A DNA stretch of 64,000 nt from a virus: the IMG/VR virus record IMGVR_UViG_3300046787_000438, positions 1 through 64,000 of that record. One strand, written 5' to 3'. Below are positions 34,423-55,113 of this stretch, piece by piece. Both the position numbers and the translations under genes were made by a program. The notes beneath the pieces were generated by a model. It was not told the origin of the DNA. It did no database searches and was given only the letters and a program-made list of their open reading frames with translations. How positions within the stretch are numbered: position 1 is the first letter of the stretch; every line of letters starts with the position of its first letter.

Positions 34423-34451
34423 TAGTGTCCTTAAATGGCAGAGATCACTAC

Positions 34452-34460
34452 TATTTTACC
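34452..34460 (-). promoter_or_regulatory. GGTAAAATA promoter motif
   Basis: Reverse strand, about 30 nt upstream of the ATG at 34422. Confidence 0.5.
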
Positions 34461-34481
34461 TTAAAACAGAGCAGCCGTTAA

Positions 34482-35462: not shown

Positions 35463-35475
35463 TTAAAATCAGACC

Positions 35476-36819: not shown

Positions 36820-36835
36820 TATATATATTCCTAGG

Positions 36836-37597
36836 TTAAATTTCTAATGCTTTAAGTCTACTAGCCAACTGATCCAATGCTTCGAATATGGTAGTAGGCG
36901 CTGGGCTCCAGTCAGATGACTGGGTGGGAGTGTAGTTAGAGCTCCCAGCAGCTCCAGTCGGGCCAGTAGGGCCGACTTCGCCTGCAATTGTCTCTACCCA
37001 AAAGTTGTCATAGTAAATTAGTAGCTTACCCTCTAGGCTGCTGTACCAAATCATGCCGTCTAGAGCTGGGCTAGGTGCTGAGTCCGAGATTAAAAAGGTT
37101 CCTGCCTGTCCAGTTGCACCCGTAGGACCCGTAGCTCCAGTTGGTCCAATTGGACCTAGATCTCCAGTATTGCCTAGATCGCCCTTAGGCCCTGTAGGCC
37201 CCATATCTCCATCAGTACCATCAAGCCCATCGTCTCCGCGATTGCCTTTGTCGCCTTTTAAACCTTGAGGACCAGTTGCTCCCTGAATACCCTGAGATCC
37301 AATTGGACCTGTCGCTCCGACTGCACCTTGTGGCCCAGTATCTCCAGTAGCTCCTTGCGCTCCAGTAGGTCCAGTAGGGCCAACTACTCCTGTTGGACCA
37401 GTCACACCTTGGATACCTTGAATTCCTCTAGGGCCTACGGGGCCAGTATCGCCTAACCCACCCTGAGGACCAGTTGGACCTATAGATGCTGTAGATGCAA
37501 GTACACCCCAAACGGCACCATCCCATTTCCAGGTTGTTCCTCCAGCTGAGTGAGTGTCATTCACTACTGGATTATTAGGAAAATTAATTGAAGACAT
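36836..37597 (-). CDS. Collagen-like fibre protein
   Basis: G-X-Y stalk of about 135 aa; N-terminal INFP..P module. Confidence 0.9.
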
Positions 37598-40458
37598 TAT
37601 GGAGTTCCTCCATCGATAGTGTCAGCCCAAATAAAGTCGTAATCATCTTCGCTAACTTTTATCAAGACTTGCCCAGCGGAACCGCCAGTAGGAAGTCCAA
37701 CTCCAGGTTGCCCAGTCGGTCCAGTCTCGCCTACGGCTCCAGTAGATCCCGTAGGGCCTATACCCCCCTGGGGGCCAACTTGCGTGTAAGTGACCTGCGT
37801 AGCCGTTAAAATTATAGATGGAATGTGCGGTGCAGGGGATCCAGTAGTATTGTGCAGCAATACTATGTTCGTATTATCGGTTGACCACATTAATTCATAG
37901 TAGTCTCCAGCGACTATCTCAAAGACATAGTTCCAGGCAACTACTATATACGGGTTATTCGTATTTACTGCGGTAGTTCCAGCCGAATCTGCCACGTCTA
38001 CGCCATTTTTACGTAGCCATATTCTTACAGTAGTTCCATTACCTCCGCCACCAGCATTGTGTAATTGGGCAGAAAATTGAATATTGTATACGCCATCACT
38101 ATTAAAAGTTATTCTGGTATTGCCAACTACTGTTACTCCGTTAGCTCCTCCGATCGAGCCATATTTAATGGCGTATGGCGTATTTACACTTCCAGCTACC
38201 TGGGTAGTCTCATCATAGAATGACCCCCAGTAAGCCACTGTTCCTCCTGCGCCAGGGGCTCCAGTTGGACCTATAGAGCCTGTAGCACCAGTTGGTCCCT
38301 GCGCTCCAGTTGGACCACTGTTACCTACAAACCCTTGAGCACCTTGAATACCTTGAATACCCTGTGCTCCAGTTGGGCCTATAGGTCCTGTATCTCCCGT
38401 AAGTCCTGCTTGTCCTGTGGGACCTGTTGGTCCAATATCTCCAGCATCTCCCTGAGCTCCAGTTGGGCCAGCTTCTCCCTGTGGTCCTGTGCTTCCTGTA
38501 TTACCTGCAGGTCCAGTCGTTCCTTGGATGCCTTGTTCCCCTGGAGCACCTTGATCTCCTTGATCACCTTTAAGACCCTGCTCACCTGCAGGCCCAGTTA
38601 TACCTTGAATACCCTGATCACCCTGAGCACCCTGAGGACCAGTAGGGCCAGTTGGGCCAACTTCACCCTGAGGCCCAGTTGGACCGATAGGCCCTTGCTC
38701 TGCAACTGCAACCTCTACCCAGAAACTGTCATAATACATGTAGAACTTAGCGTTGACTGAGTTAAACCAAGAGTCCCCTTCTGAAGGAGACAGCGGGGCA
38801 GTATCTGAAATAGTATAAGCACCCTGCGCACCTGTTGGTCCTGTAGGACCTAAGTCACCCTGGTTACCCTGCTGCCCCTGCGGACCAGTGGGCCCTTGAG
38901 GGAGCACTAAGTCGAGTATTTGATCTGGAGCCTCGCCTGAAATATAGGCAGAAGCTGATTCACCAGGGGCTGTAGTAGTTACGTCACCTATTGATAGCTC
39001 GTTAACGGCACCAGTTGGTCCTGTAACACCCTGAATACCTTGAATACCTTGCGCACCAGTCGGGCCAGTAGGGCCAGTAGGTCCTTGAATACCCTGTTCA
39101 CCCTGAGGTCCTACAATCTGACCAGCATCTACCCAGGAGTCGCCGCTCCAGACGTGCAGATTACCATCTTCATCGACAATGTAGGCATCATTAGTGTCTG
39201 CAGAATCTGGAAGGTCTGCTAGTACGGAAACAGATCCGACAAAATTAATGTTGGTGCCTTGAGGTCCAGTAGGGCCTGTAGATCCAGTCGGGCCTAGGGC
39301 TCCAGTTGGACCAGCTAAGCTTGCATTTACCTCTACCCAGTAGCCGTCGATATATAGATAAAATGCTGCACTAGTCGAGTCAAACCAGCCATCTCCTTCT
39401 TCTGGAGATTCTGGAGGTAGCGTAGAAACGGCAAAATTACCGTCTGGGCCAGTAGCACCAGTTGCGCCAGTCGGGCCAAGGGAGCCTGTCGGTCCTGTAA
39501 TGCTCAGGCCTGCCGCACCGCGAGAACCCGTTGGACCTGTTGCACCTGTGGGCCCTGCCTGACCTGCTGAACCAGTTGGTCCAACAATTGATAGACCTGC
39601 TAGACCCTGCGATCCAGTTGGCCCTTGAATACCCTGAGCACCCTGAGGGCCAGTAGCACCACGAGGTCCTGTAATACTTAGACCAGCTGAACCTTGAGAC
39701 CCAGTAGCACCAGTAGCACCAGTTGGTCCAGTGTCTCCCTTAGCTCCAGTAGATCCTGTTGCCCCGTTTGTACCGTCTCTACCAGCTGCACCTGTTGCGC
39801 CTGTAGGGCCAGCAGCACCAGTCGCGCCTGTAGCACCATTAGTGCCAGCTGCACCTGTCGGGCCTGTAGCACCGTCAACGCCATCGACACCATCAACACC
39901 ATCAGCGCCAGCGGCACCAGTTGGGCCTATAGCACCATCAACACCATCAGTGCCAGCTGCACCTGTCGGGCCTGTAGCACCTTGAATACCCTGTGCACCA
40001 GTAGGTCCTGTAATACTTAGACCTGCTAGACCTCGAGCACCCGTGGCACCTGTAGCACCAGTAGCACCGACTGTGCCAGTTGCACCAGTAGGTCCTGTAA
40101 TACTTAGACCTGCTAGACCTCGAGCACCCGTGGCACCAGTAGCACCGACTGTGCCAGTTGCACCAGTAGGTCCTGTAGCACCATCAATACCATCTGACCC
40201 ATCTGAGCCTCTTGCACCTGTAGCTCCTGTAGCACCCGTAGGACCTACCGAGCCCGTTGGTCCAGGCACGGTAGATGCTGCACCCGTGGCACCTGTAGCA
40301 CCAGTTGCACCTATCGCACCTGCTGGGCCTGTTGCACCTGTGGCACCTATCGCACCTGTGGGGCCTCCAGCTGGTCCTGCGGGACCAGTTGGTCCAGCGG
40401 GTCCCTGAGGTCCAGGACCTTTAATATCTACATATGCAAAGTTATCGGAGAGTGCCAT
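37597..40458 (-). CDS. Collagen-like fibre protein with a C1q/BclA-CTD-like C-terminal domain
   Basis: Extensive GPT/GAT repeats; C-terminal ITF...[23 protein letters not shown] beta-sandwich. Confidence 0.88.
38618..38685. repeat. 68-bp exact direct repeat shared with 33902-33969
   Basis: Identical nucleotide string. Confidence 0.9.
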
Positions 40459-40896: not shown

Positions 40897-41619
40897 TTAG
40901 TAGCCCCCAGTATTGACGCCAGACTTGAGAGGGTGCTCACCCTTGTCGAGCTGGTCCTTCCACTCTGCCTGCATCTCTTTTTGTTGAGCTCGGACGCCCT
41001 CTATTTCAGCTTCCCACTCCGCCATGCGTTCTTCAGTATAGGTAGATTCGGCGTAATCCCAGAAAGCCCCAATGGTATGGCGAGTCCCTGACTCTACGAC
41101 CTTTACTTCATGTACGTTACCAATGCCGCCAGGGAAAGTAATTAGCTGCCCTGTTTTTGGCTTGATAGTGATTGGGTGGTCTCGGTAATTCAAATCTCCA
41201 CCGACATAATCATCATTGATGTAGAGCAGGCATACGAGCTTGCTCTTTTCCCAAGCTGACCAGTTACCTTCCATATCTGTGTTGTCTGAGTGGAAAGGGG
41301 CAAACGCCCCTACTTGCCACTTCTGAGCATGAGATGAGACTGATTTGACTGGACGCTGGTGAGCGTCCTCAACTGCCGCCTTCATCCTGTCTGCAAGCTT
41401 ACCTAGGTAGTCAGTAGGTAGGCCGTACTTCTCTAGCAATGGGTCCTCTGGCATGATGCTCATACCGTATGACTCGAAGAACGCTGACATGCTCCAAGGC
41501 TGCTCGGGATCTTCAAAAAATTCTACGATTTTAGCGCATTCTTCGGAAGAGATGAAGTCCTCATATGAGATGATATCTTCTTTGTAGAGAGTCTTTTCAC
41601 CGAACTCAGTGTTTGTCAT
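40897..41619 (-). CDS. Fe(II)/2OG oxygenase (P4H-like fold, Arg-type)
   Basis: HSD ... Y.GG ... HEV-x-R(H+10). Confidence 0.9.
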   Translation of the reverse strand: MTNTEFGEKTLYKEDIISYEDFISSEECAKIVEFFEDPEQPWSMSAFFESYGMSIMPEDPLLEKYGLPTDYLGKLADRMKAAVEDAHQRPVKSVSSHAQKWQVGAFAPFHSDNTDMEGNWSAWEKSKLVCLLYINDDYVGGDLNYRDHPITIKPKTGQLITFPGGIGNVHEVKVVESGTRHTIGAFWDYAESTYTEERMAEWEAEIEGVRAQQKEMQAEWKDQLDKGEHPLKSGVNTGGY

Positions 41620-42085
41620 CTAAATCTCCTTCATAACCTAGCTCTACTAGGAATCTACTGCTGTCAAATCTTTGATTGTCTTTAGAAAATAGCTTAGCAA
41701 ACTCCATAGCTAAGTAGCGATGAGACTCTCCAGAAATTCTTCCAATTACCGACTTTAAAATCTGGCTCGTTTTATGGTAGTCGTCACGAACAAATGTACA
41801 CTCTCCACCACGTGGACGTCTAAGAACTTTAGTGTGTACCTTACCTGTAGGTTCATATAGTTCAATAGTCAAGAAATCTTTAGCAAATCCCCAGTCCGTG
41901 TAGGCTGCGTACCCATTGGCGGCGTTTATTGCATCACCATAGAAGTAGATAGACCTAGCTGGAGACTCTCCATCTCGGGCAATCGTAAGCATGTATGAGT
42001 CAGCAGTTTTACTTACCACTCGATTTCTATAGTCAGAAACCATGTCAACATGCTCTGTCTTTAATTCGCTCATTTGTCGGTCCAT
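41606..42085 (-). CDS. Hypothetical protein within the oxygenase cluster
   Basis: About 155-159 aa, overlapping both neighbours. Confidence 0.65.
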   Translation of the reverse strand: MDRQMSELKTEHVDMVSDYRNRVVSKTADSYMLTIARDGESPARSIYFYGDAINAANGYAAYTDWGFAKDFLTIELYEPTGKVHTKVLRRPRGGECTFVRDDYHKTSQILKSVIGRISGESHRYLAMEFAKLFSKDNQRFDSSRFLVELGYEGDLDDKH

Positions 42086-42933
42086 AGCTCCATGGTTGTA
42101 TACATACTGTTATCATAGATCTTTGGTCTAATGCCAATTCCAGTGAATTTACGTTGCCCAGCGGTGAAGCCACCCATTACAGAGTGGTACATTCTAAATA
42201 GATCGACTATTAAGATGTCGCCTTCTTCCCATAGCTGGGAATATCTAATCTCTAAATTATCATTTAAGTTAGTTTTTAGTACGTCTAGTAGGACATTTAG
42301 CCTATCTACTTGCTCTTCTGTTGGGGGCTTACCGTCCCAAAGGGCAAGTTCTGGCATTAAATAAGAGCCTCGGTCCGTCTCTACCCTAAGTATCTCTTGC
42401 TGAGTTAGAGGGTGCTTATCTACTACTTTAGTGTAGAAAGGTCCAGTGCCATGTGGTGTAGGTTTATCCCATTTCACTATAGATTTAGAAAGAAACTCTC
42501 TATCCTTATTGCTATATAACGCGTACAATTCAGCAGAATCTACGAATCTAGTAGTCCCCGAGCCAGCAGGTGCTGTAAAAGTTGTCATGTGCCACACTCC
42601 AGCGAGTATCGGGTAGACGTAGTATACCTGCTCTATATGCCAATCTAAAACATACTCTTCAGAGGTCTGATTATAGTCTTTATCTACATTGTCAGAGTGC
42701 CCGCCAGGGTATATAGACGTTTCTATAGTAGAGCGAGGAGCATCCGATGACACATTCCAGCCCATGGAGTTACCTAGAGTCTTTGTTAGCTCGACTTGAT
42801 CCTCGAGCGAGAAGTCTCCGCCCCTAATAACTAAAACGCCATCACGTTTAAATACTGCCTTAAGGGCGTCTACGTCACTAAAAAGATCTTCAACAGATGT
42901 AGCTTCAATTATCTTTATCGATTTTTCTGGCAT
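42070..42933 (-). CDS. TauD/TfdA-family Fe(II)/2OG dioxygenase
   Basis: GVLVIRG, WHIE, G.T.FVD, HP.T, W..GD.LI.D...MYH ... R. Confidence 0.85.
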   Translation of the reverse strand: MPEKSIKIIEATSVEDLFSDVDALKAVFKRDGVLVIRGGDFSLEDQVELTKTLGNSMGWNVSSDAPRSTIETSIYPGGHSDNVDKDYNQTSEEYVLDWHIEQVYYVYPILAGVWHMTTFTAPAGSGTTRFVDSAELYALYSNKDREFLSKSIVKWDKPTPHGTGPFYTKVVDKHPLTQQEILRVETDRGSYLMPELALWDGKPPTEEQVDRLNVLLDVLKTNLNDNLEIRYSQLWEEGDILIVDLFRMYHSVMGGFTAGQRKFTGIGIRPKIYDNSMYTTMELWTDK

Positions 42934-42936
42934 TCT

Positions 42937-43812
42937 CTAAATCTCTTCATCTGGCTCGTAGCGGTCTTTTAGATTACCTGACTCTAAAAGCTGGTAGTAC
43001 TCTTTTAGAGTTACTCTCATTTTCATATATGGCTCCATAATTTTCAAATCATGGCGCTTCCTGCGTGAGATCTCTAGTTCTTCAAACTCGTCGCCGTACT
43101 TCTCCTTAAGCTCATGCCAGTCTGGAGTTCCTTCAAAGTTATACATCCAATAGAGTCTAGTTATATATTTAGGTGCTCCATAAATTCTTTTAACGGCGTG
43201 AAAATAAGGGTATCCTGAAGGAAATATTACTAAATCCCCCGCTTTGGGCTTATATTCAAACTCTCGTACAACTTCCCCGTCCTCGATCACGCGGTATGCA
43301 ATTTCTCCACCCTCGTAGTCGTCATTTGGGTATAAGACACCAGTTATGCCGAATTTATCTCCAGGACTGTCGGCAATCTCTGGCATATAATCAGAGTGAT
43401 AGTTCATGGTTAAATGTTCGTTACCATTTAGATTTTCATCAGGTATGTATCTAGCTAGGCCCCAGGGTTGGCATGACCAGTTGGTAAGCGATATCCCCGT
43501 GTGTTCGATATAAAATTTAGTTGCAAAGTGAAATGCCTTAGCCACCTCTAAAAAGTACTTGTCCGCTCCCTGCTCAGTTTCTGCTTTTTTGGCAACATCC
43601 TCCCACTCCTGTAGCGTCGGGAAGTGTGGGTGTGCTATAAAGGTATGTACTCTGCTATCTATTTGACGACCAAAACCGTACCAACCTCTCCAGTCGCCGT
43701 ATTCTTCATAGTAGTCGATATAGTCGTCAGGGTCGGACAGCACGTTGTGGAATACTATTACATTGTCATCTAGTATCTCGACATTTGGATTGTCTTTAGT
43801 GTAGTCTTCCAT
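42937..43812 (-). CDS. Fe(II)/2OG oxygenase, prolyl 4-hydroxylase-like (Lys-type)
   Basis: HSD, YEGGE, HAVKRIYGAPK. Confidence 0.88.
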   Translation of the reverse strand: MEDYTKDNPNVEILDDNVIVFHNVLSDPDDYIDYYEEYGDWRGWYGFGRQIDSRVHTFIAHPHFPTLQEWEDVAKKAETEQGADKYFLEVAKAFHFATKFYIEHTGISLTNWSCQPWGLARYIPDENLNGNEHLTMNYHSDYMPEIADSPGDKFGITGVLYPNDDYEGGEIAYRVIEDGEVVREFEYKPKAGDLVIFPSGYPYFHAVKRIYGAPKYITRLYWMYNFEGTPDWHELKEKYGDEFEELEISRRKRHDLKIMEPYMKMRVTLKEYYQLLESGNLKDRYEPDEEI

Positions 43813-43822
43813 CTAATCCTCG

Positions 43823-44470
43823 TTAAACTTCCATATCAATAAGACTATTTATCGGCATATGCACATGAGTGATTATTGTCTTACGACCACTAATTAGCGG
43901 TCTAGACTCGTGTAAATAGCCTGAGGGGAACACTACAATACTACCAGCCTTGTTTTTTATAGCTATATCTAGCCCTGGCTGCACGATCCCTAGCTCGCCA
44001 CCCTCGTACTCATCATCTAGGTATACAGCGATAGTTACCGTATCTCTACCTGAAACGACCATGTCACGGTGAGGCCCCATGTCTTTGTACTCGTCATACC
44101 TACGAATTCCATACGTATGGGTACCGAAGATCTCTTTATGTAGATGCTCTAGCTCCGAATCAGCTGCTCCATGTGCTTTTAGGTACGTGGCTGTACAAGC
44201 TTCCATCGAGCCCAGGATTGAGTTTAAAACATACTCTGATTTTTCTTTGATTAGTGGATTAGACTCTCTAATCAAATCTGGATAGCTAAGTGTCTTTAAA
44301 TCTCCGTATGGATTTTCTTTTGAGTCATTATTGGCATACCAGGTCTCCCAGGGGGTTACGGATAAGCTATTAATATCCTCTAGAGTTTCCATGACATTAG
44401 CTATCTCTGGAATAGCTCCTGGAAAGTAATAAACGTTCCTATGAAGAACCTCGACCGTTAGTGCAGACAT
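43823..44470 (-). CDS. Fe(II)/2OG oxygenase, prolyl 4-hydroxylase-like (Lys-type)
   Basis: HRD, YEGGE, HESRPLISGRK. Confidence 0.88.
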   Translation of the reverse strand: MSALTVEVLHRNVYYFPGAIPEIANVMETLEDINSLSVTPWETWYANNDSKENPYGDLKTLSYPDLIRESNPLIKEKSEYVLNSILGSMEACTATYLKAHGAADSELEHLHKEIFGTHTYGIRRYDEYKDMGPHRDMVVSGRDTVTIAVYLDDEYEGGELGIVQPGLDIAIKNKAGSIVVFPSGYLHESRPLISGRKTIITHVHMPINSLIDMEV

Positions 44471-44471
44471 G

Positions 44472-45257
44472 TTAGTCCTCGTCTAGGTACTTAGTTGGTC
44501 CAGCGTTCACGTCATTGTATGCTGAACCAGCATTGAACTTTTTACGAGATTCTGGGTCATTTGCATCAAACTCTGGTTGGAAGATGAATCCAGGGAACAT
44601 GTACTTATCCCCGCTCTTCATTAGGTGTACCTGATGCTTATATGGATGAGTAGACGGGAAGATTAGTGCTTGACCAGCTTTAGGCTTGATCGTGAAGTCT
44701 ACTAGTTCAGAATTCGATTGATCATTGACGTCGTCTGCTGGGCGTAGGTGCCCATTTTTTGGGTTACGTAGGTCATACGGTCTGATGATGAATGACAATT
44801 CTCCACCATCGTAGTCATCATTCACATATACAACAATTGACCATTTAATGCTTAGGTCACCAGCCTGCGCGTCAAAGTGGGCACCCATCGCGCAACCTGG
44901 CCTATACTTCATGATACCAGCGAATGGAGAGATATTAGGCTCTCCCTCTTCTTCATGATCTTTATAGAAAGCATGAGAGATATTCTCAATAGCACCTCTG
45001 ATTTGTCCAACAACCCAGCGGACATCTTCAGCACGCTCTGAGGTGAGCTCGTCTAGCCCCTCGAGGTTAAAGTCTTTCTTGCTGCCGAAGCTGTGCCCGT
45101 CTTGTGTATTAGAAAACCAGAACCCCCACTCAGGGATTACGGACTGGACGGTCTCGTCCTCGTCTAGTTCTTCGATTAGTTGGAGTAGGCGTGCTGGGTC
45201 ATCTAGCACATCACCATATAGATATACGTTCTCGTGTAGTTTTTGTTCTAAGTGCAT
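44472..45257 (-). CDS. Fe(II)/2OG oxygenase, prolyl 4-hydroxylase-like (Lys-type)
   Basis: HFD, YDGGE, HQVHLMKSGDK. Confidence 0.88.
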   Translation of the reverse strand: MHLEQKLHENVYLYGDVLDDPARLLQLIEELDEDETVQSVIPEWGFWFSNTQDGHSFGSKKDFNLEGLDELTSERAEDVRWVVGQIRGAIENISHAFYKDHEEEGEPNISPFAGIMKYRPGCAMGAHFDAQAGDLSIKWSIVVYVNDDYDGGELSFIIRPYDLRNPKNGHLRPADDVNDQSNSELVDFTIKPKAGQALIFPSTHPYKHQVHLMKSGDKYMFPGFIFQPEFDANDPESRKKFNAGSAYNDVNAGPTKYLDED

Positions 45258-45259
45258 TA

Positions 45260-45937
45260 CTAATTACTTCCTAAGTGGTTTTTAATTGTCCAAAAGAACG
45301 GGCATACATATCTAATGCCAGATCTAATCTCGGTTACTCCGTGGATGTAGTGCATATCGCCAGGGAAGAAGTATGCAGCTCCAGCCTTAGGCTTAAACTG
45401 AATCCCCTGGTTAGGGAAGTATAACTCGCCGCCCTCGTAGTCGTCGTTGATATAGAAAAGGCCAGCGATGTCATAGTATGGGAAATCGTTTGGCTTGCCA
45501 CGATTCTCACCCTCATGTAGCTCTTTATCGGCATGTGGCTGCTGACGTTGTCCAGGGAGCCATCTAACAATTGCTGGACTAGTTGCGTGAGCGTCTACAT
45601 TGAAGAACGCGTCTACCTTTTCTTTTAGACGAAGCTGCATACCAACAATAGTTTCTGTAATCCTAGGATCTACGCTATTTAGGGTGGGGGCAGTGGCAAC
45701 CCTATGGTCCCAATAGCCAGAGTCGTAAATGACAGTCCCGTCCTCGTTATAATGAGTCTCGGTCTTATCCCAGGTTTGGTTAGTCTTAGCGAACTCAGTT
45801 AAAATTCTGAGCTCATCCTCGGTCATAAAGTTTTCCAGGGAGACAATGTTATCTCTAGAATCACCAAAAAATCCAGATGGTGTGGTTGACTCATAGGGTC
45901 TATCACTACCATTGGTAACATGCGCTGTCATTGCCAT
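45260..45937 (-). CDS. Fe(II)/2OG oxygenase (Arg-type)
   Basis: HAD, YEGGE, HGVTEIRSGIR. Confidence 0.9.
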   Translation of the reverse strand: MAMTAHVTNGSDRPYESTTPSGFFGDSRDNIVSLENFMTEDELRILTEFAKTNQTWDKTETHYNEDGTVIYDSGYWDHRVATAPTLNSVDPRITETIVGMQLRLKEKVDAFFNVDAHATSPAIVRWLPGQRQQPHADKELHEGENRGKPNDFPYYDIAGLFYINDDYEGGELYFPNQGIQFKPKAGAAYFFPGDMHYIHGVTEIRSGIRYVCPFFWTIKNHLGSN

Positions 45938-45951
45938 ATAGCTATCCTACC

Positions 45952-46692
45952 CTACTCGTACTTACGTCGTTCCCAGACTTCGCGTTGATACACGCCTCCG
46001 TCTGGAACTCTATATTTCATGCTATTTTCTTGATTTTTTGCCATCATTTCCATTGGCCCGAACTTGGTAATCGTTTCTGACTCCCAGTTTTCCCGTTTAA
46101 ATGGGAGTATTTGAGCATATGGAGTACCAGCTGGGATAGTGCCCTTGAATCCCTTAGCAATAAAAAATGGCATAGTGCCAGGTAGATGTACTTTATCGTT
46201 ATCGATAATTCCACTAGTGGTTAGGAATGGTAGTTCGAAGCGGTTAAAAGGCTGAGTGTATAGAGCGCTGTAGCCCTCTGGTAGCTCTACGGCCCAATCA
46301 GCCCACCAAGCAAAGTGCTTCTCGTGGTACCCATATGGGTTATGGAATTGAGGCATCGGCATACGTTCTTGGATAAAATCTTTATTTTTTTCGTCCAAAA
46401 CTTTAACTTGGATCTGCCCCGTGGAGTCCTCGTAGAACTCTATATCGCATGGGGTTTTATACATATACCCGCTGCCCATAATATCGTACACTGCTGGGCA
46501 GGCTTTCCATGTAGGGATCTTTCCGCCGCCATTTGGCATTTCCCATGGCTTGCCAGTCATTGGATTTACGGCAAAACGATCTGCGTCTCTATACCAATCT
46601 GGAATAGTCTTTATTGCAGGCCCTGGCTTAGATGGGCTCTCGTTATTGAGCCACGGTCTATTTAGTATAAATTTAGCCTTCTGAGTGTCCAT
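45952..46692 (-). CDS. Hypothetical protein, DUF6065-related/dUTPase-like beta fold
   Basis: TWKACP..D...GY, SGIIDND, IPAGTP..Q.LPFKRE; shares IPAGTP with its neighbour. Confidence 0.55.
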   Translation of the reverse strand: MDTQKAKFILNRPWLNNESPSKPGPAIKTIPDWYRDADRFAVNPMTGKPWEMPNGGGKIPTWKACPAVYDIMGSGYMYKTPCDIEFYEDSTGQIQVKVLDEKNKDFIQERMPMPQFHNPYGYHEKHFAWWADWAVELPEGYSALYTQPFNRFELPFLTTSGIIDNDKVHLPGTMPFFIAKGFKGTIPAGTPYAQILPFKRENWESETITKFGPMEMMAKNQENSMKYRVPDGGVYQREVWERRKYE

Positions 46693-47440
46693 CTGACTCC
46701 CCCTCCTCTACTTCGTAGGTTTGACCAGTGAATGGACACATTACTGTCTTGAGCTTAATTGATTTTGTTTCGTGGGCTCCCACGGTCTCTCCTCTATAAT
46801 CGACAGCATCTCGGTACATTTTTGACCAGTCGCCTACGCCATTCTTAATTTCTTGGATATCACCATACTTGCGGACTTCCTGCCAGTATTCCTGGGCTGG
46901 GAGGCCATCTAAAATTTCCAGGCTGTAGTCCTGCTGTAGAGCACTCAATGATATCGGTAATACTGCGGCAATTGGTGTCCCCGCTGGGATATGTACTTCT
47001 ACATTAGGCTCGGTGAGCCTCCAGGCTATCGGTAACATGTGCATATAAAAGGAAGTACTCATTAGGGTCGTGTAGCACTGAGTCCCTCTTATGAATTGAT
47101 TAGGGACTGGCATAGCTAACATTGTGGTGTCAGAGTCGGTTATTAGTTTCAATCCAGTAGTGAAACTAATAGTGGCGTTTCCTCTACCAGTATTTAGAAA
47201 CTGATGGCCCTCTAAAATTGTTACATGGTCTGGAGTAGTGTCGGTTATCCCGTCCCATATAAATCTAAGATCCTCGGGAAATGATATCCCCCAGCCTAAC
47301 CTGTTAGTTAGATTAATTGGGAAGCACATATAGGCGTGCTTATCATCGGTGCTATCCATCCAGTCTCGACGAGCTTGGAGCTGCTCTATATTAGCTGTCT
47401 TACCTTCATGGAAAAGCTTTTGAACCTTAATAGTACCCAC
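46673..47440 (-). CDS. DUF6065-like protein
   Basis: RDWMD...HAY.CFP....N..GW motif and IPAGTP. Confidence 0.6.
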   Translation of the reverse strand: MGTIKVQKLFHEGKTANIEQLQARRDWMDSTDDKHAYMCFPINLTNRLGWGISFPEDLRFIWDGITDTTPDHVTILEGHQFLNTGRGNATISFTTGLKLITDSDTTMLAMPVPNQFIRGTQCYTTLMSTSFYMHMLPIAWRLTEPNVEVHIPAGTPIAAVLPISLSALQQDYSLEILDGLPAQEYWQEVRKYGDIQEIKNGVGDWSKMYRDAVDYRGETVGAHETKSIKLKTVMCPFTGQTYEVEEGESDGHSEG

Positions 47441-48222
47441 TATGCGTCTGTATCTTCGTAGAATTCTGGACGATGATACTTTTCAGAGAAATCCAACATG
47501 GTGACCATTGAGTACTTGACACCTGACTTCACTGGCATAGCGCGATGAGGGTACATGAAATTTGATGGGAAGATATATACATCTCCAGCGCGAGCCTTTA
47601 TTTGTGCATTTTGCAATCTAAAAAATAGCTCGCCGCCTTCGTAATCATCGTTAGGGAACGCAACTAGTGATACCACACAGTTATACGAGTATCCATGGTC
47701 GTGGTGCTCCTGGAAATGCTGGCCTTCACCGTATCGGACATAGTTAGTGGCCTCCCAGTAGCGTAGCTCTCCGACATTGTAGTGACGAGTGTAATCCTTA
47801 ACTACCTGAAGCTCTCTATATGTTACATCATCTGCTAGCTTCTTTAGAATCTCCCCCGCTTCAGAATTATCGTGCTCTATGTCGGTCTTCTTATATTTAA
47901 AATCAACACAATCGCGATACTCTGGCATCTTCATTTGATAGCCAACCATAGCTTCACGCCAGTCGTAGTTGTTGGATGGGTCGTCTACGACAGACTCTAG
48001 TCGCTTGATGATATCCATCTCTTTAGGAAGAACGTCCCTATAAACCCAAATGCCGCTACCAGGAATCACTTCCTGAGATGACGACCATGTCTGCTCATCT
48101 AAGGTGTACCACTTAGCTAATCGATTTTGTAGATTTTGCTGCTCTTGCTTACCTTTTTGGTCAATAGCGGCGTCTGCTTTTTGCTTTTCCATTAGCTCTT
48201 CTGGAGTCAAGTCCTGTGCCAT
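47440..48222 (-). CDS. Fe(II)/2OG oxygenase, prolyl 4-hydroxylase-like (Lys-type)
   Basis: HHD, YEGGE, HRAMPVKSGVK. Confidence 0.9.
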   Translation of the reverse strand: MAQDLTPEELMEKQKADAAIDQKGKQEQQNLQNRLAKWYTLDEQTWSSSQEVIPGSGIWVYRDVLPKEMDIIKRLESVVDDPSNNYDWREAMVGYQMKMPEYRDCVDFKYKKTDIEHDNSEAGEILKKLADDVTYRELQVVKDYTRHYNVGELRYWEATNYVRYGEGQHFQEHHDHGYSYNCVVSLVAFPNDDYEGGELFFRLQNAQIKARAGDVYIFPSNFMYPHRAMPVKSGVKYSMVTMLDFSEKYHRPEFYEDTDA

Positions 48223-48230
48223 TTTTATCC

Positions 48231-48962
48231 TTAGTACTTTAGTTTGTAGTCTTCGACAACTTGAGAAACTCTTTGGTTTACACCGTCTCTATCGTGATAG
48301 TCAGTCATTACAACTACGGCATATTTGGTACCCTCTATCATTTCTTTAGAGGCATGTTCATAAATAAATGTAGAGGGGAATATTGCGATATCTCCCTGTT
48401 TCGGCTTTAAGTCTACACCGAATCTAGGGAACCAGAGCTCTCCACCTTCGTAATTATCATTTAGATATATAACGGCAGATATTGTTGCTACATATGTTGG
48501 CCCGTGATCAGCGTGAATTCTAAACTGGGTACCAGCCCCCTCGTACTTTACAAAATTAAACGCTTCGTAAGCTCGGATTCCTACGCCCCAGTAGGCTCCG
48601 TAGTCGTCGACGCACATACGTAACTTCTGAAAAATTTCTTCGTGGAGATCGTAAAGAGCGGAGTTCTCGGGGGTTCTAGGCCCTAAGTTGTTACTCGAAA
48701 CCTTAAAGTCCTGAGCTTTTCTGGCGTAGTTATCCACCTCAGCGGAGTTAGAAACTTTGGCATTGCTCCACTCAAACTGAGTGCTGCCATCTAAATTAGC
48801 CTCTAACTGAGATATGTACCTATCGCAATCGGCTGGTGATATAGCGTTTCTATAGACGTTTATACCCAGCGCTGGGTTGAGGACTGACATGTGCCCTAGT
48901 TGGCGGTCTGCCATTCTAGAGGATGCAGTCTCTGATCTATCTTTAGTGAACCATATATTCAT
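48231..48962 (-). CDS. Fe(II)/2OG oxygenase, prolyl 4-hydroxylase-like (Lys-type)
   Basis: HAD, YEGGE, HASKEMIEGTK. Confidence 0.9.
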   Translation of the reverse strand: MNIWFTKDRSETASSRMADRQLGHMSVLNPALGINVYRNAISPADCDRYISQLEANLDGSTQFEWSNAKVSNSAEVDNYARKAQDFKVSSNNLGPRTPENSALYDLHEEIFQKLRMCVDDYGAYWGVGIRAYEAFNFVKYEGAGTQFRIHADHGPTYVATISAVIYLNDNYEGGELWFPRFGVDLKPKQGDIAIFPSTFIYEHASKEMIEGTKYAVVVMTDYHDRDGVNQRVSQVVEDYKLKY

Positions 48963-48983: not shown

Positions 48984-49016
48984 AAAAAGAAAAGCGGCTA
49001 GATTTCTCTAGCCGCT
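48984..49016 (-). terminator. Rho-independent terminator after the PPFF/FN3 gene
   Basis: AGCGGCTAGA-GAAA-TCTAGCCGCT followed by TTTCTTTTT on the - strand. Confidence 0.85.
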
Positions 49017-49031
49017 ATCTCTTTTTGGAGA

Positions 49032-49925
49032 CTACTTATCGTCGTCTTCCTTCAACTCTTCCCATGATTCCCATGGGATTGAGTAAGCGAAGTAAGGAGG
49101 GAAGAAAGGAGGGAAGAATGGTGGGAAGAACGGGAAGAAAGGAGGGAAGAATGGTGGGAAGAACGGTGGGAAGAAAGGAGGGAAGAACGGGAAGAAAGGA
49201 GGGAAGAATGGTGGGAAGAACGGGAAGAAAGGAGGGAAGAAGGGAGGGAAGAACGGGAAGAAAGGAGGGAAGAATGGAGGGAAGAACGGTGGGAAGAATG
49301 GTGGGAGCGTAGTTACGTTGCCTGACAGATCTGATGCAGCGGAATTACCGTTAGCATTAGTTGCAATAACGCTGTACTGCTGCGCTGTATTCATTTCCTG
49401 CGGGACAGTTATTGATGTAACAGTTGAAGCAACTGTATTTCCCTTAGCATCTGTTGATGCCCAGGTGTAGCTAGAAATAGCTTTTCCACCGTCATTTGGT
49501 GCTGTCCAAGAGACAGAGTCTTGGTCTGGCACTGTTGATGATGCTGTAGGAGCTGCGGGCTTTGCTGGAACTGTTGTTACAGTTCTAGCTGGTGCGGCCG
49601 TGCCTGGTGAGGTACCAGCCGCATTAGATAGTTTGACAGTAGCAGTGACTGAAGAATTGCTGGCTAGCCCTGTGACTGTAGCTGTATATGTACCGCTAGC
49701 TGGTGTGGGAAGGGCCCCACTACCTATGGTCGTACCAGCCGCATTACTTACTATATAGTTAGTGGGTGCAGGGGATAGAGCATTAATTGTCCAGGTAATT
49801 GTAAGTGCACCGTCATTGAAGGCACGGTCAGTGCCTACATCAGTTGCAGTTACATTTTCTGGGGCCATAGGCTCCAGGAAGTCATTTTGAGCAGCGGAAC
49901 GGCCGCCAGCCTCTTTCTTTGCCAT
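49032..49925 (-). CDS. Two-FN3-domain protein with a C-terminal poly(PPFF) tract and acidic tail
   Basis: FN3 motifs (AP.NVTA..ITW; VSWTAPNDGG..I.SY..YSV.ATN.NG.S); 72-aa PPFF tract. Confidence 0.88.
   Translation of the reverse strand: MAKKEAGGRSAAQNDFLEPMAPENVTATDVGTDRAFNDGALTITWTINALSPAPTNYIVSNAAGTTIGSGALPTPASGTYTATVTGLASNSSVTATVKLSNAAGTSPGTAAPARTVTTVPAKPAAPTASSTVPDQDSVSWTAPNDGGKAISSYTWASTDAKGNTVASTVTSITVPQEMNTAQQYSVIATNANGNSAASDLSGNVTTLPPFFPPFFPPFFPPFFPFFPPFFPPFFPFFPPFFPPFFPFFPPFFPPFFPPFFPPFFPFFPPFFPPFFPPYFAYSIPWESWEELKEDDDK
49089..49304 (-). repeat. Coding (PPFF/PFF)n repeat, 19 units
   Basis: 15 four-residue plus 4 three-residue units; synonymous codon variation. Confidence 0.95.
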
Positions 49926-49943: not shown

Positions 49944-52424
49944 CTAAGCAGTCAGGTCGCCGTAGACGATCCAGGTGTTAGCAGCTCTCTTTAATAGTGT
50001 AGCAGATGACCAGCGGGTGCGTAGTTTCAGTCCAGGGGTTGCGTTAACGGTAACTCCGTCAGCTCCAGCAATAGTCACTTGGCCAGTATTTGTCTGAATA
50101 ATGTCGATGCTAGTACCGACTGGGTAGGCTACAGATGAATCTAGAGGGATCGTGATAGTTGTTGCTGATGTATTTGACACCTCGATGATATCATCACGTA
50201 GCCCTAAGTTATCTAGGGTATAGCTAGCGGTCTTATAGATGAAACTAGAGATTGAAGGAACGCCAGCTGAACTCTGCTGAGTTCCGTCATTGAAGGCTAC
50301 AAACCCAGTAGAAACCCCTGCGTTGGCTATAACATTTTGAGCTTCGATGCTTGCAAAAGAGAAAGATGCATCAGCTGTGTCAATGTAAAGTGACTCGTCT
50401 GGCTCTGGAACATAATTGTCAAAGAACTTAAATCGGCCATCAGTAGCATCTCGGAACATGCCAGTGTGTGCATAGGTACCGCTAGCATAACGTCCAGCGG
50501 CCCAACCTAGGTCTGGATCGGTACTAACTCTAGCTCTAGCAGCTCCACCAGTGAGGTAGGTGTCAGTTACTGTACTTGCTACAGTAAATGTATTCGCTGT
50601 CACCTCTAAAATCTGTGCGCCAGGTGCTGCTATATCAAATGAGCTAGGAGAGGAATCCGTTATGACAACATAGTGTCCAGCAGCATACCCGTGGTTTGCA
50701 ATAGTCTCGTATACAACGTAGGTACCGTCCCCTATAGCACTATTAATTCCGTTTAGGCCAGGGTTATTCAGGTAAATCATGTTGTCTTGTACAGCAAGAT
50801 TTGCTGTGTTAACGGTGGTTGTTGTACCTACAACATATAGATCACCAGTGATAGTGACATTTGTTGCCTCTACATCTCCAGTAAAAATTGCACCATCTAG
50901 ATTTGCCTTGGCATCTAGTGCACCCTGGGTAGCTATAGATACTGGCTTGTCAGCATCTGAAGTGTTGTCAACATCACCAAGGCCGACCATTGACTTTGTG
51001 ATACCAGAGGTTGTACCAGTAAAGGTAGCATTTGCAGTAGGTGCTTTAGCGTCAATCTGGGTCTGAATAGCTGAAGTAACACCATTCAAATAGCCGATCT
51101 CTACGTTAGAGGTGTCACCAATTGAAGTAGTTGATGGTAGCACTACGGTACCAGTGAATGTCGGTGCAGCTAATGGTGCATAAGTAGTTGCTGCAGTAGC
51201 AGATGCAAGTTTTGCATCTAACTGAGTCTGGATAGCTCCAGTAACCCCATTTACGTAGCTGAGCTCGGTCCCAGATACGTCACCAATTGAAGTAGTTGAT
51301 GGTAGCACTACGGTACCAGTGAAGCTAGGACCTTCTAATTGAGCATAAGCTTCTAGGTCCGAGGCAATAACCAGAGTGCTAGTATCTGCAATGCCGTGAA
51401 CATTGGTGGTATCATCTGAGTGCGCTGCCAAGATAGATGTAGTAACTAGATCTGCAGTATTGGCAATACCGTGAACATTGGTGGTGTCAACGTTGTGGGT
51501 ATTAATTGCTGAATTCAAGTCAGCTGTCACCACTAGGTCAGCAACGCTAGCGATACCGTGGACTCCAGAAGTTAGAGCTTCGTGACTACTTAGTGTATTT
51601 GCAACGTCTGAAGCTGCGTCTAAGGCACCAGCAATATCAGTCTGATATGCCAAGTTTGCAGTATTAGAGATACCATGAACGTTTGTATCCAAGTTCTCGT
51701 GGTCGTTCATTAGGTTGTCAGCATATGATTTACCAACAAAATCCAAGCTGTTATAGTGTGTAACCCCGTCACCAACACGCACAAAACCAGCGTGGTCGCT
51801 TTCGATGTATAAAGTATTTGCGGCAGTTACTACGTTTGCAGTTGCAAAATTAGCAGCAGTGTCGATTACAAAGTTAATTTTGCCACCAAGCGAAGTAGCC
51901 ATAGTGGTTGCAAAATTAGGGTCATCAGAAAGAGCTGCTGCAAGCTCATTTAGAGTATTTAAGGTTCCTGGGGACGAATCTATTAGATTAGCAACAGCGG
52001 TATCAGTGTATGAAGCGGCATTAGCCTGAGCCGCATTTGCCTTGTTCTGAGCACCAGTCTGAGTTTCTAGAGCTGCAGTGTCTGCAATTCCATGTACATT
52101 TGTAGCGTCATCTATATGAGCGTCCAATGTTGATAGCCCAGCTGTGACAGTATTGCCGAAGTTAGCGTCGCCACCGATAGACGCAGCTAGCTCGGCTAGG
52201 GTGTCCAAAGTCTCTGGGGCAAGACCCACTACATCAGCAAGCGCATTGTCTACATATGACTGGCTAATTGCGCTATATGCAAGTGCACCCCAGTTATCAG
52301 TAGCATTACCAATCTTAAATGCACCAGTATCTGACTCATAACCTAATTCACCAGCTGCTAGTACTGGATTGGCGCTTGCCCATTCTGCAGCGGTGCCGCG
52401 TCTGAACTGAATTCTAATTGCCAT
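49944..52424 (-). CDS. Fibre protein with an Mtd_N/hyaluronidase-type N-terminal domain
   Basis: IQFRRGTAAEW..ANPVL..GE.G.E.DTG.FKIG; APETLDTL.ELA and NVHGI repeats. Confidence 0.85.
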   Translation of the reverse strand: MAIRIQFRRGTAAEWASANPVLAAGELGYESDTGAFKIGNATDNWGALAYSAISQSYVDNALADVVGLAPETLDTLAELAASIGGDANFGNTVTAGLSTLDAHIDDATNVHGIADTAALETQTGAQNKANAAQANAASYTDTAVANLIDSSPGTLNTLNELAAALSDDPNFATTMATSLGGKINFVIDTAANFATANVVTAANTLYIESDHAGFVRVGDGVTHYNSLDFVGKSYADNLMNDHENLDTNVHGISNTANLAYQTDIAGALDAASDVANTLSSHEALTSGVHGIASVADLVVTADLNSAINTHNVDTTNVHGIANTADLVTTSILAAHSDDTTNVHGIADTSTLVIASDLEAYAQLEGPSFTGTVVLPSTTSIGDVSGTELSYVNGVTGAIQTQLDAKLASATAATTYAPLAAPTFTGTVVLPSTTSIGDTSNVEIGYLNGVTSAIQTQIDAKAPTANATFTGTTSGITKSMVGLGDVDNTSDADKPVSIATQGALDAKANLDGAIFTGDVEATNVTITGDLYVVGTTTTVNTANLAVQDNMIYLNNPGLNGINSAIGDGTYVVYETIANHGYAAGHYVVITDSSPSSFDIAAPGAQILEVTANTFTVASTVTDTYLTGGAARARVSTDPDLGWAAGRYASGTYAHTGMFRDATDGRFKFFDNYVPEPDESLYIDTADASFSFASIEAQNVIANAGVSTGFVAFNDGTQQSSAGVPSISSFIYKTASYTLDNLGLRDDIIEVSNTSATTITIPLDSSVAYPVGTSIDIIQTNTGQVTIAGADGVTVNATPGLKLRTRWSSATLLKRAANTWIVYGDLTA

Positions 52425-52713: not shown

Positions 52714-55113
52714 TTAACCGATTACTACTACACGGTAGCTGTCTGCTGAAACAGTAGACGAAGCAATCCATGAGATAGTCACCGCGTTGGTGCTTGTCAC
52801 CATTACATCAGCCTCTACTAGCGAGTTATCGGCTAGATCGCGGATCTGAACGGTTACATCAAGAGTACCAATACCGTGAGTCACGGTCCAGGTGACAACA
52901 CCAGCCGACGGGGTCAAGCTTGAGTTATTCTCTGAGTACTTAGTAGTTGCAGCAAGGTTAGCGCGTGCACCAGCAGCAGTTGTTGCTCCAGTACCACCGT
53001 TAGCAATTGCTACGGTTCCGTTCACATTGTCAGCATTTCCAGAAATGTCACCAGAGATGTCTTCACCAGGAATAGATGCTACAGATGTAAGGAATCCACC
53101 TTCACCTCCACCAACTAGGTATGAACCTGAGGTGAAGAAGGTGTTTCCAGTACCACCGTGTGATACAGGGATGGTAGAGCCATTCCAGACACCAGTTGTG
53201 ATGGTTCCAACAGTATCGATCGAGGTCTGACCAGCATAGTCAGAAGCAATCGAGATACCGTTTACATCAACAGTAATTCCAGATCCAGCGTCAGCCGAGA
53301 TTGAAGTACCAGAGATATTTACACCACTACCTGCAGTGTACTGACCAGCTGCAGAGAACTGAGTCCAGGTAGCGCCAGACATCCCCGAGTAGGCCGTTAC
53401 AATGTATCCGCGGGCCTGGTTGGTTCCTAGCTCAACGAATACAAAGTCGCCAACTTCAGGAGTTTGCTGATCGTCAGCTGCAATGAGCATTGACATGGCA
53501 GGCCCAGCCGCTGAGTCGTATACGTAGATTCCGTTATACAGACCCATGCCGCCAGCTTGGTTCTTAACAAGAACGCGGTCGCCATCTTGCAGTGTTATTC
53601 CGTCAATAGCACTATCGCGGAATGGAGCACTTAGAGAGCTAGTTGTAGCTACCTTTACAGAATCTTTAACATTCAGACCCTGTGAGGCGGCCGAGATCTC
53701 GCCACGAAGAGTAGAGAGAACTACGTCATCTGCAGCATTGAAGTCGGAGGTTAGGCTGGTCTCGAGTGCATCTAGGCCAGAGGTTAGGTCAGAAGCTACG
53801 TTGCTGATGTCAGTGGTTAGACCAGAAGCTACAGTGTTTGTGTAGTCCTTCGAGGTCTGAATCGCATTGCTGATGTCAGTTCCAAGGCCGCTAACAGAGC
53901 TAGTAACGGTGTTAGATAGGTCTGAAATGTCTCCAGCTAGACCCTGATCTGCAAGTTCGAAAGCTGAAGTTACGTTAGTACCAATAGCATTTGCGTAGTT
54001 CTTGTATGCAGTCTCAGTTGCTGAGGACGCGCTTGAAACCGCTGAGTCAGTGTAGTCATTTGCATTAGATTCAGCAGTTGCAGCTGAGCCAGAAGCGTCA
54101 TACCACGAGTCAGTAGCATTTCGATCGATTTCTACCTCATTGGTAGAGCCAATCTTAAGGCCATTTCCAGTATCGACGTTCAGTACGCTGTTAGTTACGG
54201 TCAGACCGTCGCCAGATGAGGTAGCAAAGATACCTGCTACAGCGTTGTCGATATCGCTCTGTAGTCCAGTAGCTACACCATCAACGTATGAGACGGCATT
54301 GCTGTAAGCAACTCCTGCAGCATCGGCGATATCGGTAGATAGGCCAGAGGCTACGGTGTTTGTGTAGTCCTTTGCATCCGACAAAGCCGAGGCAGCTGCG
54401 CCTGATGCATCGTAAGTCCCTGAGGTAACCGAGATGGTGTCAGAATCAATTGTGATTCCTGTACCTGCAGTTAGAGTATTCTGCTTGCCAGAGATCATGG
54501 CGGCAATGTCAGTTGCATAGTTCGGGTTATCTGCAAGTGCAGCAGCGAGCTCATTTAGAGTGTTCAGAAGTGCAGGTGCACCATCAACTAGGTTAGCTAC
54601 CGCAGTGTCGGTGTAGTCATTGGCATCTGAAAGAGCAGAGGCAGCAGCACCAGCAGCATCGTAGTTAGATGCTAGGCCATCTGCGTAGCTCTTAGCGTTA
54701 TTTTCTGCAGTTGTTGCAGCACCAGCAGCATCGTAGTTAGATGCTAGGCCATCTGCGTAGCTCTTAGCGTTATTTTCTGCAGTTGTTGCAGCACCAGCAG
54801 CATCGTAGTTAGATGCTAGGCCATCTGCATAAGCTTCTGCATTTGCCTGAGCAGTTGAGGCAGATCCAATTGCATCGTAAGTATTAGCTAGATCAAGTGC
54901 AGTGATTGCAGCATTGATTGCTTCGGTAACATTACCGCCCGCAGCAAGGGCAACCCAGGACGTACCGTCATAGTATTTTAGAGCTGAATCTACGGTGTTG
55001 TAGTAGATCTGACCTACAACAGGCGAAGAGGGAGCTGTTGCAAGGTTTTGAATCCTTGCATTCTGAAGCTCGTTTTTATTGAGGTTCAGGTTCGTTAAGA
55101 ACTGCTTTGCCAT
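52714..55113 (-). CDS. Fibre protein (coiled-coil/beta repeats)
   Basis: MAKQFL N-terminus, YDAAGAA repeats, [21 protein letters not shown]; C-terminal TH.IG domain. Confidence 0.85.
54644..54828. repeat. Perfect 72-bp tandem repeat (about 2.6 copies)
   Basis: Unit encodes [24 protein letters not shown]; copies start at 54644, 54716 and 54788. Confidence 0.9.

Follow-up and report, generated by a model that had tools for sequence, protein, structure and literature searches.

A conserved proline/phenylalanine tract on fibre-region proteins of uncultured phages and its genomic linkage to prolyl-4-hydroxylase-like oxygenases

The first 64 kb of the virus record IMGVR_UViG_3300046787_000438, hereafter the window, carry two genes, open reading frame (ORF) A and ORF B, whose products contain long tracts of Pro-Pro-Phe-Phe (PPFF) and Pro-Phe-Phe (PFF) units. 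These tracts, A and B, are instances of a module that recurs in many uncultured phages, is constrained at the protein level and is linked in the genome to an array of 2-oxoglutarate (2OG)-Fe(II) oxygenase genes. From this we infer the conformation of the tract, its place in the virion and its modification. With a probability of roughly 0.5, it serves fibre-associated binding domains as a portable stalk or tail of Pro and aromatic residues, is kept by strict selection on the protein and probably undergoes hydroxylation by the neighbouring prolyl-4-hydroxylase (P4H)-like enzymes. It is an undescribed protein module. In a full-text search of the literature the repeat strings PPFFPPFF, FFPPFFPP and PFFPPFFP were found in no paper, and nothing relevant turned up on PPFF in phage or on P4H with a proline-rich repeat in phage.

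Tract A reads (PPFF)4-PFF-(PPFF)2-PFF-(PPFF)2-PFF-(PPFF)4-PFF-(PPFF)2-PPYF, and 34 of its 72 residues (about 47%) are proline. Tract B begins with PPAF-PFF and likewise finishes with PPYF. The PPFF and PFF units are contiguous in both tracts, without intervening residues, and glycine is absent from both. A preliminary description of this DNA, made from the letters alone, had given the two tracts 72 and 55 residues and had noted their PPYF ends and the PPAF-PFF opening of tract B; the positions and the translations bear this out, and both tracts lie on the minus strand. It had also assigned them to otherwise unrelated proteins, with which Pfam agrees, finding an FN3 domain in ORF A (fn3, E = 7.7e-6) and an Ig-like domain in ORF B (He_PIG, E = 7.3e-10). 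The two are the sole such tracts in the whole 152,411-bp genome, and none of 50 shuffled 20-kb chunks yielded one. The PPFF-PPFF-PFF 11-mers that had been described are real, as seen in the layout and in the periods of 12, 33 and 45 nt reported by TRF. The 11-residue super-period drawn from them holds in the close lineage (L041, L131) but not in distant homologs, which use other unit grammars.

The constraint on the tracts becomes apparent when they are compared with a close relative, represented by two contigs from one sample, L041 for ORF A and L069 for ORF B. Four-fold degenerate sites have diverged by 68–72% inside the tracts and by 40–55% in the flanking domains. Tract A shows no residue change in 72 and no indel, although 23 of its 34 four-fold sites differ, and tract B shows one change in 53 residues and no indel. 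The order of the units is identical in both, whereas the flanking folded domains differ at 8–15% of residues. In the more distant relative L131 the first 18 units are kept and two PPFF units are added before PPYF. This near-saturated synonymous divergence without change of residue or length, together with the retention of the module across hundreds of divergent homologs, upholds the earlier claim that the tracts are maintained at the protein level. The argument first advanced for it, that units differ at synonymous positions, is weak when taken alone, and it applies to only one of the two residues. Proline codons do vary (CCA, CCT, CCG and CCC), but the core phenylalanine codons are TTC in 60 of 60 cases, the single TTT lying in the final PPYF unit of tract B.

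The preference for TTC is not confined to this genome, where Phe codons overall are divided 48:52 between TTT and TTC. Among Phe codons TTC accounts for 85.5% in 100 distinct tracts of other phages, for 42% outside the tract in the same ORFs and for 25% in neighbouring genes, and the dicodons TTTTTT and CCCCCN are nearly absent from those tracts. The bias points to codon selection, either for avoiding homopolymer runs or for decoding. Taken together, these comparisons indicate that not only the exact sequence of residues and its length but even the choice of codons is under selection.

At the DNA level the units consist of a few codon variants arranged in higher-order repeats of 33 and 45 nt. 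PFF units inside the repeats always use CCG for proline, and the PFF that follows PPAF at the start of tract B uses CCT. Tracts A and B share an identical run of 68 nt, a length attained in 0 of 300 codon shuffles, and therefore they are not independent at the DNA level. Within each of two related genomes the identical runs between A and B measure 68 and 58 nt, whereas the orthologous tracts of these genomes share runs of only 23 and 35 nt. The tracts therefore grew by duplication of multi-unit blocks in frame, with exchange of DNA between the two genes, and they evolve in concert. Repeats of this kind, the multi-unit codon strings and the run common to both genes, and the spread of tract length from 16 to 140 aa among more distant relatives would also be expected of a slippage microsatellite or contingency locus without a constrained product. 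Nevertheless, that account is barely credible. It is at odds with the lack of indels and of residue changes at near-saturated synonymous sites, with the selection for TTC, and with a reading frame that is always the Pro/Phe frame, inside long ORFs. The statement that the tract is not a pure slippage microsatellite is thus confirmed by the comparison with L041 and L069.

The plus strand of tract A forms a 216-nt polypurine run of GAAGAA and GGAGG/GGTGG-type units, to which no function is ascribed. It contains many Shine-Dalgarno-like AGGAGG motifs, with CCUCC repeated on the mRNA strand. A 95-aa plus-strand ORF over the tract (49025–49312) was rejected as spurious, being an antisense reading of the repeat.

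The module is widespread. A degenerate DNA pattern of three units matched at least 120 IMG/VR contigs. At E ≤ 0.01 there are 644 homologs of ORF A; where the source names them, they are all called 'hypothetical protein' or carry generic labels. The general motif is P(P)xF, in which the final Phe is constant and x is mostly Phe or Tyr, and the unit grammar differs by lineage: PPYF, PPHF, PPMF, PPRF, PYF, APPGFF and PFF-PPFF 7-mers all occur. In L152, L169, L181 and L187 PPHF replaces many PPFF units, giving His-rich and far less hydrophobic tracts; PPMF units are found in L133 and PYF runs in L141. Extreme hydrophobicity is therefore not universal for the module.

The proteins that carry the tract are equally varied. 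Members of the ORF A family have a near-invariant N-terminal peptide (K4, G7, S10, F16 and P19 across 40 homologs), two FN3 domains, a tract of 16–140 aa and a variable end, which may be an acidic tail, a single Lys, GPGFK, a Cys-rich knot-like segment, a basic segment or a Hint/intein-like domain. Other scaffolds are small proteins with an N-domain of about 85 aa and a Lys at the end, single-FN3 proteins, proteins with PASTA-like (peptidoglycan-binding) domains, and proteins of 725–1561 aa in which the tract stands ahead of further FN3-like domains. In the ORF B family, 28 of 30 He_PIG homologs (P0144–P0173) keep the tract in the same position, as an internal linker. Such an arrangement could be taken for a distal adhesive tip, in which the tract and the variable end contact the host, with the polymer adhering to the host envelope or entering it, while attachment to the virion is the task of the FN3 domains and N-terminal peptide. 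The near-invariant peptide, the highly variable end, which is typical of receptor-contacting tips, and the occurrence of the tract on PASTA-like scaffolds speak for it, while the position of the tract between two folded domains in the B family speaks against it, and we regard this role as unlikely. It is compatible with a hydroxylated stalk as well as with a purely structural module, and does not exclude either.

Two features of the protein ends deserve mention. Many ORF A homologs of 410–450 aa (P0004, P0007, P0023, P0055 and P0111 among them; loci L163, L174, L185 and L194) possess a C-terminal Hint/intein-like domain of about 150 aa, which starts at a Cys right after the tract and in P0055 lies above the Pfam cut-off for PT-HINT. 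This domain often finishes with ...HN plus a few residues without a nucleophile. Self-cleavage by it would leave the tract as the mature C-terminus, often ended by Lys or basic residues, resembling the ...PPxFK forms that lack the domain. A single Lys stands right after the last unit (...PP[ASVIR]FK or GPGFK) in about a quarter of tract proteins, at loci that include L012, L023, L033, L037, L048, L062, L063, L068, L070, L084, L086, L089, L097, L098 and L108, and the acidic tail of ORF A likewise has a final Lys (49035–49037).

No match was obtained among 50,697 cultured phage records by megablast of the region, tblastn of ORF A or tblastn of DUF6065, a protein of the array. The low-complexity filter was on in these searches, and the FN3 part of ORF A should still match; cultured phages thus seem to lack the family. 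Neither ORF A nor ORF B belongs to a PHROGs family. A scan of 185,579 species genomes gave 22 matches, most of them short chance matches in non-coding frames. True tracts were found there only on a few contigs of metagenome-assembled genomes (MAGs), several of which also carry oxygenases. These contigs (L212, L217, L221, L224, L225 and L229) belong to MAGs assigned to Verrucomicrobiales, Gammaproteobacteria, Acidibacter and Cyclobacteriaceae. They are probably mis-binned phage DNA, and hence no host can be read from them.

As nearly every second residue is proline, a chain extended in the manner of polyproline II is what one would expect by default. AlphaFold2 (AF2), run with 40 homologs, predicts two beta-sandwich domains in ORF A with pLDDT above 90, and shows no helix or strand in residues 210–297, where the tract is extended at pLDDT 54–60. 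Since the tract is about 47% proline, neither helix nor sheet is possible, and an extended polyproline-II-like form is the most likely conformation. Fully extended, 72 residues would span about 22 nm and 55 residues about 17 nm. A collagen triple helix is excluded because there is no Gly at every third residue. The rigid hydrophobic rod or adhesive element imagined in the preliminary description is compatible with the predicted form.

Downstream of ORF A, flanked by the fibre module to which that gene belongs and by the collagen-like one containing ORF B, runs the oxygenase array. All its genes are on the minus strand (Table 1): seven PF13640 (P4H-type) oxygenases, a TauD-type oxygenase, the DUF6065 protein and two unknown genes. 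HxD...H iron-triad motifs can be read in the translations of the oxygenases. The first gene of the array has as its best solved relative the P4H of B. anthracis (3itq/5hv0, E = 7e-5), and in other loci 18 tract genes are followed immediately by an ortholog of it. In DUF6065 one Cys (C39) is invariant, and the iron-binding HxD...H pattern is lacking. Its predicted fold matches dUTPases in Foldseek (E = 5e-4), weakly at TMq 0.3–0.4, and a sequence search of it against the PDB gave no match.

Linkage of the tract to this array, the strongest feature of its context and one that the preliminary description had overlooked, was seen from both sides. In loci fetched by the tract, an array gene starts at most 150 nt downstream on the same strand in 31 of 88 tract genes, within 1 kb in 55 of 88 and within 3 kb in 67 of 88; in the small-protein families the gap is only 8–24 nt. 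In loci of at least 15 kb fetched by DUF6065, a tract is present in 32 of 32, counted by a compositional definition that is specific against shuffled sequence. A strict regular expression missed 15 of 34 array-selected loci, in which variant tracts, (APPxFF)n or Hint-bearing, sat in the same gene slot. Five records showed no oxygenase near the tract; four of them have 6–9 PF13640 genes elsewhere and the fifth is 31% complete. The order Mtd_N fibre gene, FN3-tract gene, oxygenases recurs in most of the array-selected loci sampled. Collagen-like fibres were considered as the general oxygenase substrate and rejected, because only 8 of 32 array loci have a collagen-like run. Thus a long tandem Pro-rich repeat, a co-encoded P4H-type oxygenase and linkage beyond one genome, by which a P4H substrate may be recognized, are all found here.

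In several relatives, as in this phage, the oxygenases are bracketed by two tract genes, the second of which is on the same strand about 10–12 kb downstream of the array; in L145 and L153 the second tract is about 9.9 kb downstream of DUF6065. In some relatives the FN3-tract gene is separated from the oxygenases by a gene of about 235 aa (L163:8074-8781, L185:5369-6079 and L189:8028-8750). Its start, MSIYHLHIPRT(S/A)GI..., resembles what we take to be the PAPS-binding loop of sulfotransferases. Dioxygenases and sulfotransferases have been linked in bacterial collagen-like systems (Iyer et al. 2010, PMC2938197).

Table 1. Positions of the tract genes, the oxygenase array and the neighbouring fibre genes in the window.
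Feature	Position	Strand	Remarks
Mtd_N-type tail fibre gene	49944..52424	(-)	just upstream of ORF A; matches Mtd_N in Pfam and tail-fibre families in PHROGs
ORF A, 297 aa	49032..49925	(-)	conserved N-terminal peptide, two FN3-type beta-sandwich domains, Pro/Phe tract, acidic tail
Tract A, 72 aa	49089..49304	(-)	residues 208–279; PPFF/PFF units, PPYF last
Acidic C-terminal tail, 18 aa	49035..49088	(-)	final Lys; same tail type in relatives L041/L130 and L131
Terminator-like hairpin	48993..49016	(-)	10 pairs, 6 of them G-C, then T-run; between ORF A and first oxygenase; from consensus scan, putative function
2OG-Fe(II) oxygenase, P4H-like	48231..48962	(-)	Pfam PF13640; immediately downstream of ORF A
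2OG-Fe(II) oxygenase	47440..48222	(-)	PF13640; HxD...H...K motif
DUF6065 protein	46673..47440	(-)	Pfam PF19541, E = 7e-24; constant array member
Rest of array	40897..46692	(-)	orthologs recur in related loci
Five PF13640 oxygenases	45260-45937, 44472-45257, 43823-44470, 42937-43812, 40897-41619	(-)	
TauD-type oxygenase	42070-42933	(-)	
Two unknown genes of array	45952-46692, 41606-42085	(-)	
Collagen-like fibre genes	29770-40458		region also holds ORF B
ORF B, 326 aa	34482..35462	(-)	N-terminal domain, Pro/Phe tract, He_PIG Ig-like domain, C-terminal region
Tract B, about 55 aa	34893..35057	(-)	residues 136–190; internal linker between N-terminal domain and He_PIG domain

These data can be brought together in one model. 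In phages of this lineage, small domains of binding type (FN3, Ig-like or PASTA-like), encoded among the tail-fibre genes, would be fitted with a P(P)xF polymer. The polymer would form an extended polyproline-II-like aromatic stalk or tail, whose Phe side chains probably mediate its packing against further copies of itself or against partners. The P4H-like 2OG oxygenases whose genes directly follow ORF A most likely use the tract as their substrate. If Pro residues, and perhaps others in the unit, were hydroxylated, the strongly hydrophobic chain would gain the capacity for hydrogen bonding and turn stiffer or stickier, an effect that may be likened to that in extensins, chlorovirus Pro-rich proteins and mussel foot protein. 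More tentatively, and with somewhat less than even odds, the P(P)xF polymer may be the long-sought protein substrate of phage tandem dioxygenase arrays, yielding a hydroxylated Pro/aromatic rod or glue on fibre-associated proteins.

Several points weigh against a hydroxylated stalk. Its hydroxylation is probable from the linkage and the type of enzyme, its incorporation into the virion is deduced from gene position, and, as AF2 confidence in the tract is low, its conformation is argued chiefly from composition. Between ORF B and the array lie 5.4 kb that include collagen-like fibre genes, and a terminator-like hairpin parts ORF A from the first oxygenase. Since the sampled loci are those of related phages and are not phylogenetically independent, the linkage may be inherited synteny within one broad phage lineage. 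Cyanophage Syn9 has a related array after its fibre genes, yet no Pro/aromatic tract was found in the 49 kb of it that were examined, so such arrays can work on something else; for arrays of this type the synthesis of secondary metabolites, rather than modification of a virion protein, has been proposed (Iyer et al. 2010, PMC2938197). Accordingly, the tract could be a purely structural stalk or linker, and the array could target small metabolites, host molecules or different fibre proteins, in which case the adjacency would reflect inherited order. Common descent would indeed predict the order of fibre gene, FN3-tract gene and oxygenases that most loci share. This explanation is the main rival, though somewhat less likely than a hydroxylated stalk. 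The adjacency is kept where the scaffold has been replaced, both in the small proteins made of N-domain, tract and Lys and in proteins of 725–971 aa, and it is kept with those 8–24-nt intergenic gaps at a DUF6065 identity of about 25%. In addition, the constant partner of the array is the tract and not collagen, as the counts of 32 and 8 in 32 loci illustrate.

The preliminary description had offered a second idea, a multi-core precursor of a ribosomally synthesized and post-translationally modified peptide (RiPP), whose processing would set free modified PPFF peptides, linear or cyclic. Antamanide contains the PPFF motif. The motif is also found in cyclolinopeptide A (PMC9266943). Tailoring-type oxygenases adjoin the tract gene, and the putatively self-cleaving Hint domain follows the tract in many homologs. 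Nevertheless, such a precursor is very improbable. No spacers or recognition or cleavage sequences separate the units, and the tract sits on proteins of 300–1500 aa with folded domains, internally in ORF B and in most of its homologs. The conserved neighbours are 2OG oxygenases, DUF6065 and unknown proteins, with no protease, cyclase or transporter among them. Exact conservation of total length and unit order would be needless for a source of identical small peptides. Orbitide and MSDIN precursors, moreover, are short and have leader and recognition sequences and cyclases of the prolyl-oligopeptidase type, none of which accompanies the phage tract. The precursor idea is therefore abandoned here in favour of the hydroxylated stalk.

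The virus record is a complete genome with direct terminal repeats and 46.6% G+C, and its primase is nearest to those of large Microbacterium phages and an 'Actinomycetia phage' (47–51% identity). From this placement the host is likely an actinobacterium and the phages of this uncultured lineage are likely actinophages. A perfect 72-nt tandem repeat of 2.6 copies (100% identity) is found at 54644–54828, within a 799-aa minus-strand ORF (52714–55113) of a fibre or structural gene.

Arrays of 2OG dioxygenases in phages, cyanophages above all, have been known since at least 2010, and the tract provides a conserved candidate substrate that is easy to synthesise, which makes the function of the array directly testable. 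If this broader reading is true, extensins and mussel adhesive proteins would have a counterpart in a bacterial virus, and the module would represent a new class of virion component tailored after translation, in which the paralogous oxygenases divide the positions of the unit among themselves. A nearly pure Pro/Phe polymer that is kept letter-perfect raises questions of fold, solubility and assembly, and also of the translation of 30–70 consecutive Pro-Pro and Phe-Phe codons. Given how common the module is among uncultured phages, it may have a bearing on how phages adsorb and which hosts they infect in nature, and a natural Pro-Phe-Phe polymer may interest peptide-materials research. The window adds to this two tracts on unrelated scaffolds in one genome that evolve in concert, a test of synonymous against residue divergence that includes unit order, a general TTC bias and the negative result in Syn9.

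Among known systems, the closest array described is that of Syn9, where genes gp41–gp54 form a tandem dioxygenase array with a dUTPase-fold protein bearing a conserved cysteine (Iyer, Abhiman, de Souza, Aravind 2010; PMC2938197). As in Syn9, a run of diverse classical 2OG dioxygenases directly follows the tail-fibre genes on the same strand, here with eight genes (40897–48962). DUF6065, by its invariant Cys and its weakly dUTPase-like fold, may resemble the dUTPase-fold protein of Syn9, with no detectable sequence match. Faint homology to Syn9 is seen between the oxygenase at 45260 and gp51, and between the gene at 45952–46692 and gp43. Tryptophan halogenases and a JmjC-type member belong to the Syn9 array, whereas halogenase families are absent among the Pfam matches of the array genes in this phage.

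Phage fibre regions also contain extended, low-complexity collagen-like modules rich in Pro and small Ig-like or FN3 beta-sandwiches, and such modules are shuffled between genes. The tract differs from the collagen-like ones in lacking Gly at every third residue and in its units of 3–4 residues in mixed order. The residues of the PFF unit occur in the same order in free Pro-Phe-Phe tripeptides, which assemble into a very stiff aromatic 'dry zipper' whose hydrogen-bond network is tightened by hydroxylation of Pro. These tripeptides are, however, separate molecules that are hydrogen-bonded head to tail in crystals and fibres, whereas the tract is a covalent polymer with Pro-Pro steps, and to transfer these properties to the tract is conjecture. 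Plant extensins, hydroxyproline-rich glycoproteins and mussel foot protein 1 consist of Pro-rich aromatic tandem units that form polyproline-II rods, are hydroxylated by 2OG-dependent P4H and are stiff, cross-linkable or adhesive. The tract has neither a Ser-Pro4 nor a Tyr-Lys motif, contains far more Phe and almost no polar residues, and its array shows no sign of glycosyltransferases; the resemblance is one of mechanism only.

Another close system is that of chlorovirus PBCV-1, for which Eriksson and co-workers reportedly described in 1999 a prolyl 4-hydroxylase, along with the virus's own proline-rich repeat ORFs such as (Pro-Ala-Pro-Lys)n. The phage system, known from sequence alone, differs in its bacterial host, in having eight oxygenases and not one, in a Pro/aromatic (PPFF) repeat instead of a Pro/Ala/Lys repeat, and in the placement of that repeat on fibre-region FN3 and Ig proteins with conserved gene adjacency. 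Like PBCV-1, this phage encodes P4H-type 2OG oxygenases together with proteins carrying long tandem Pro-rich repeats, which are plausible, or in PBCV-1 perhaps proven, substrates.

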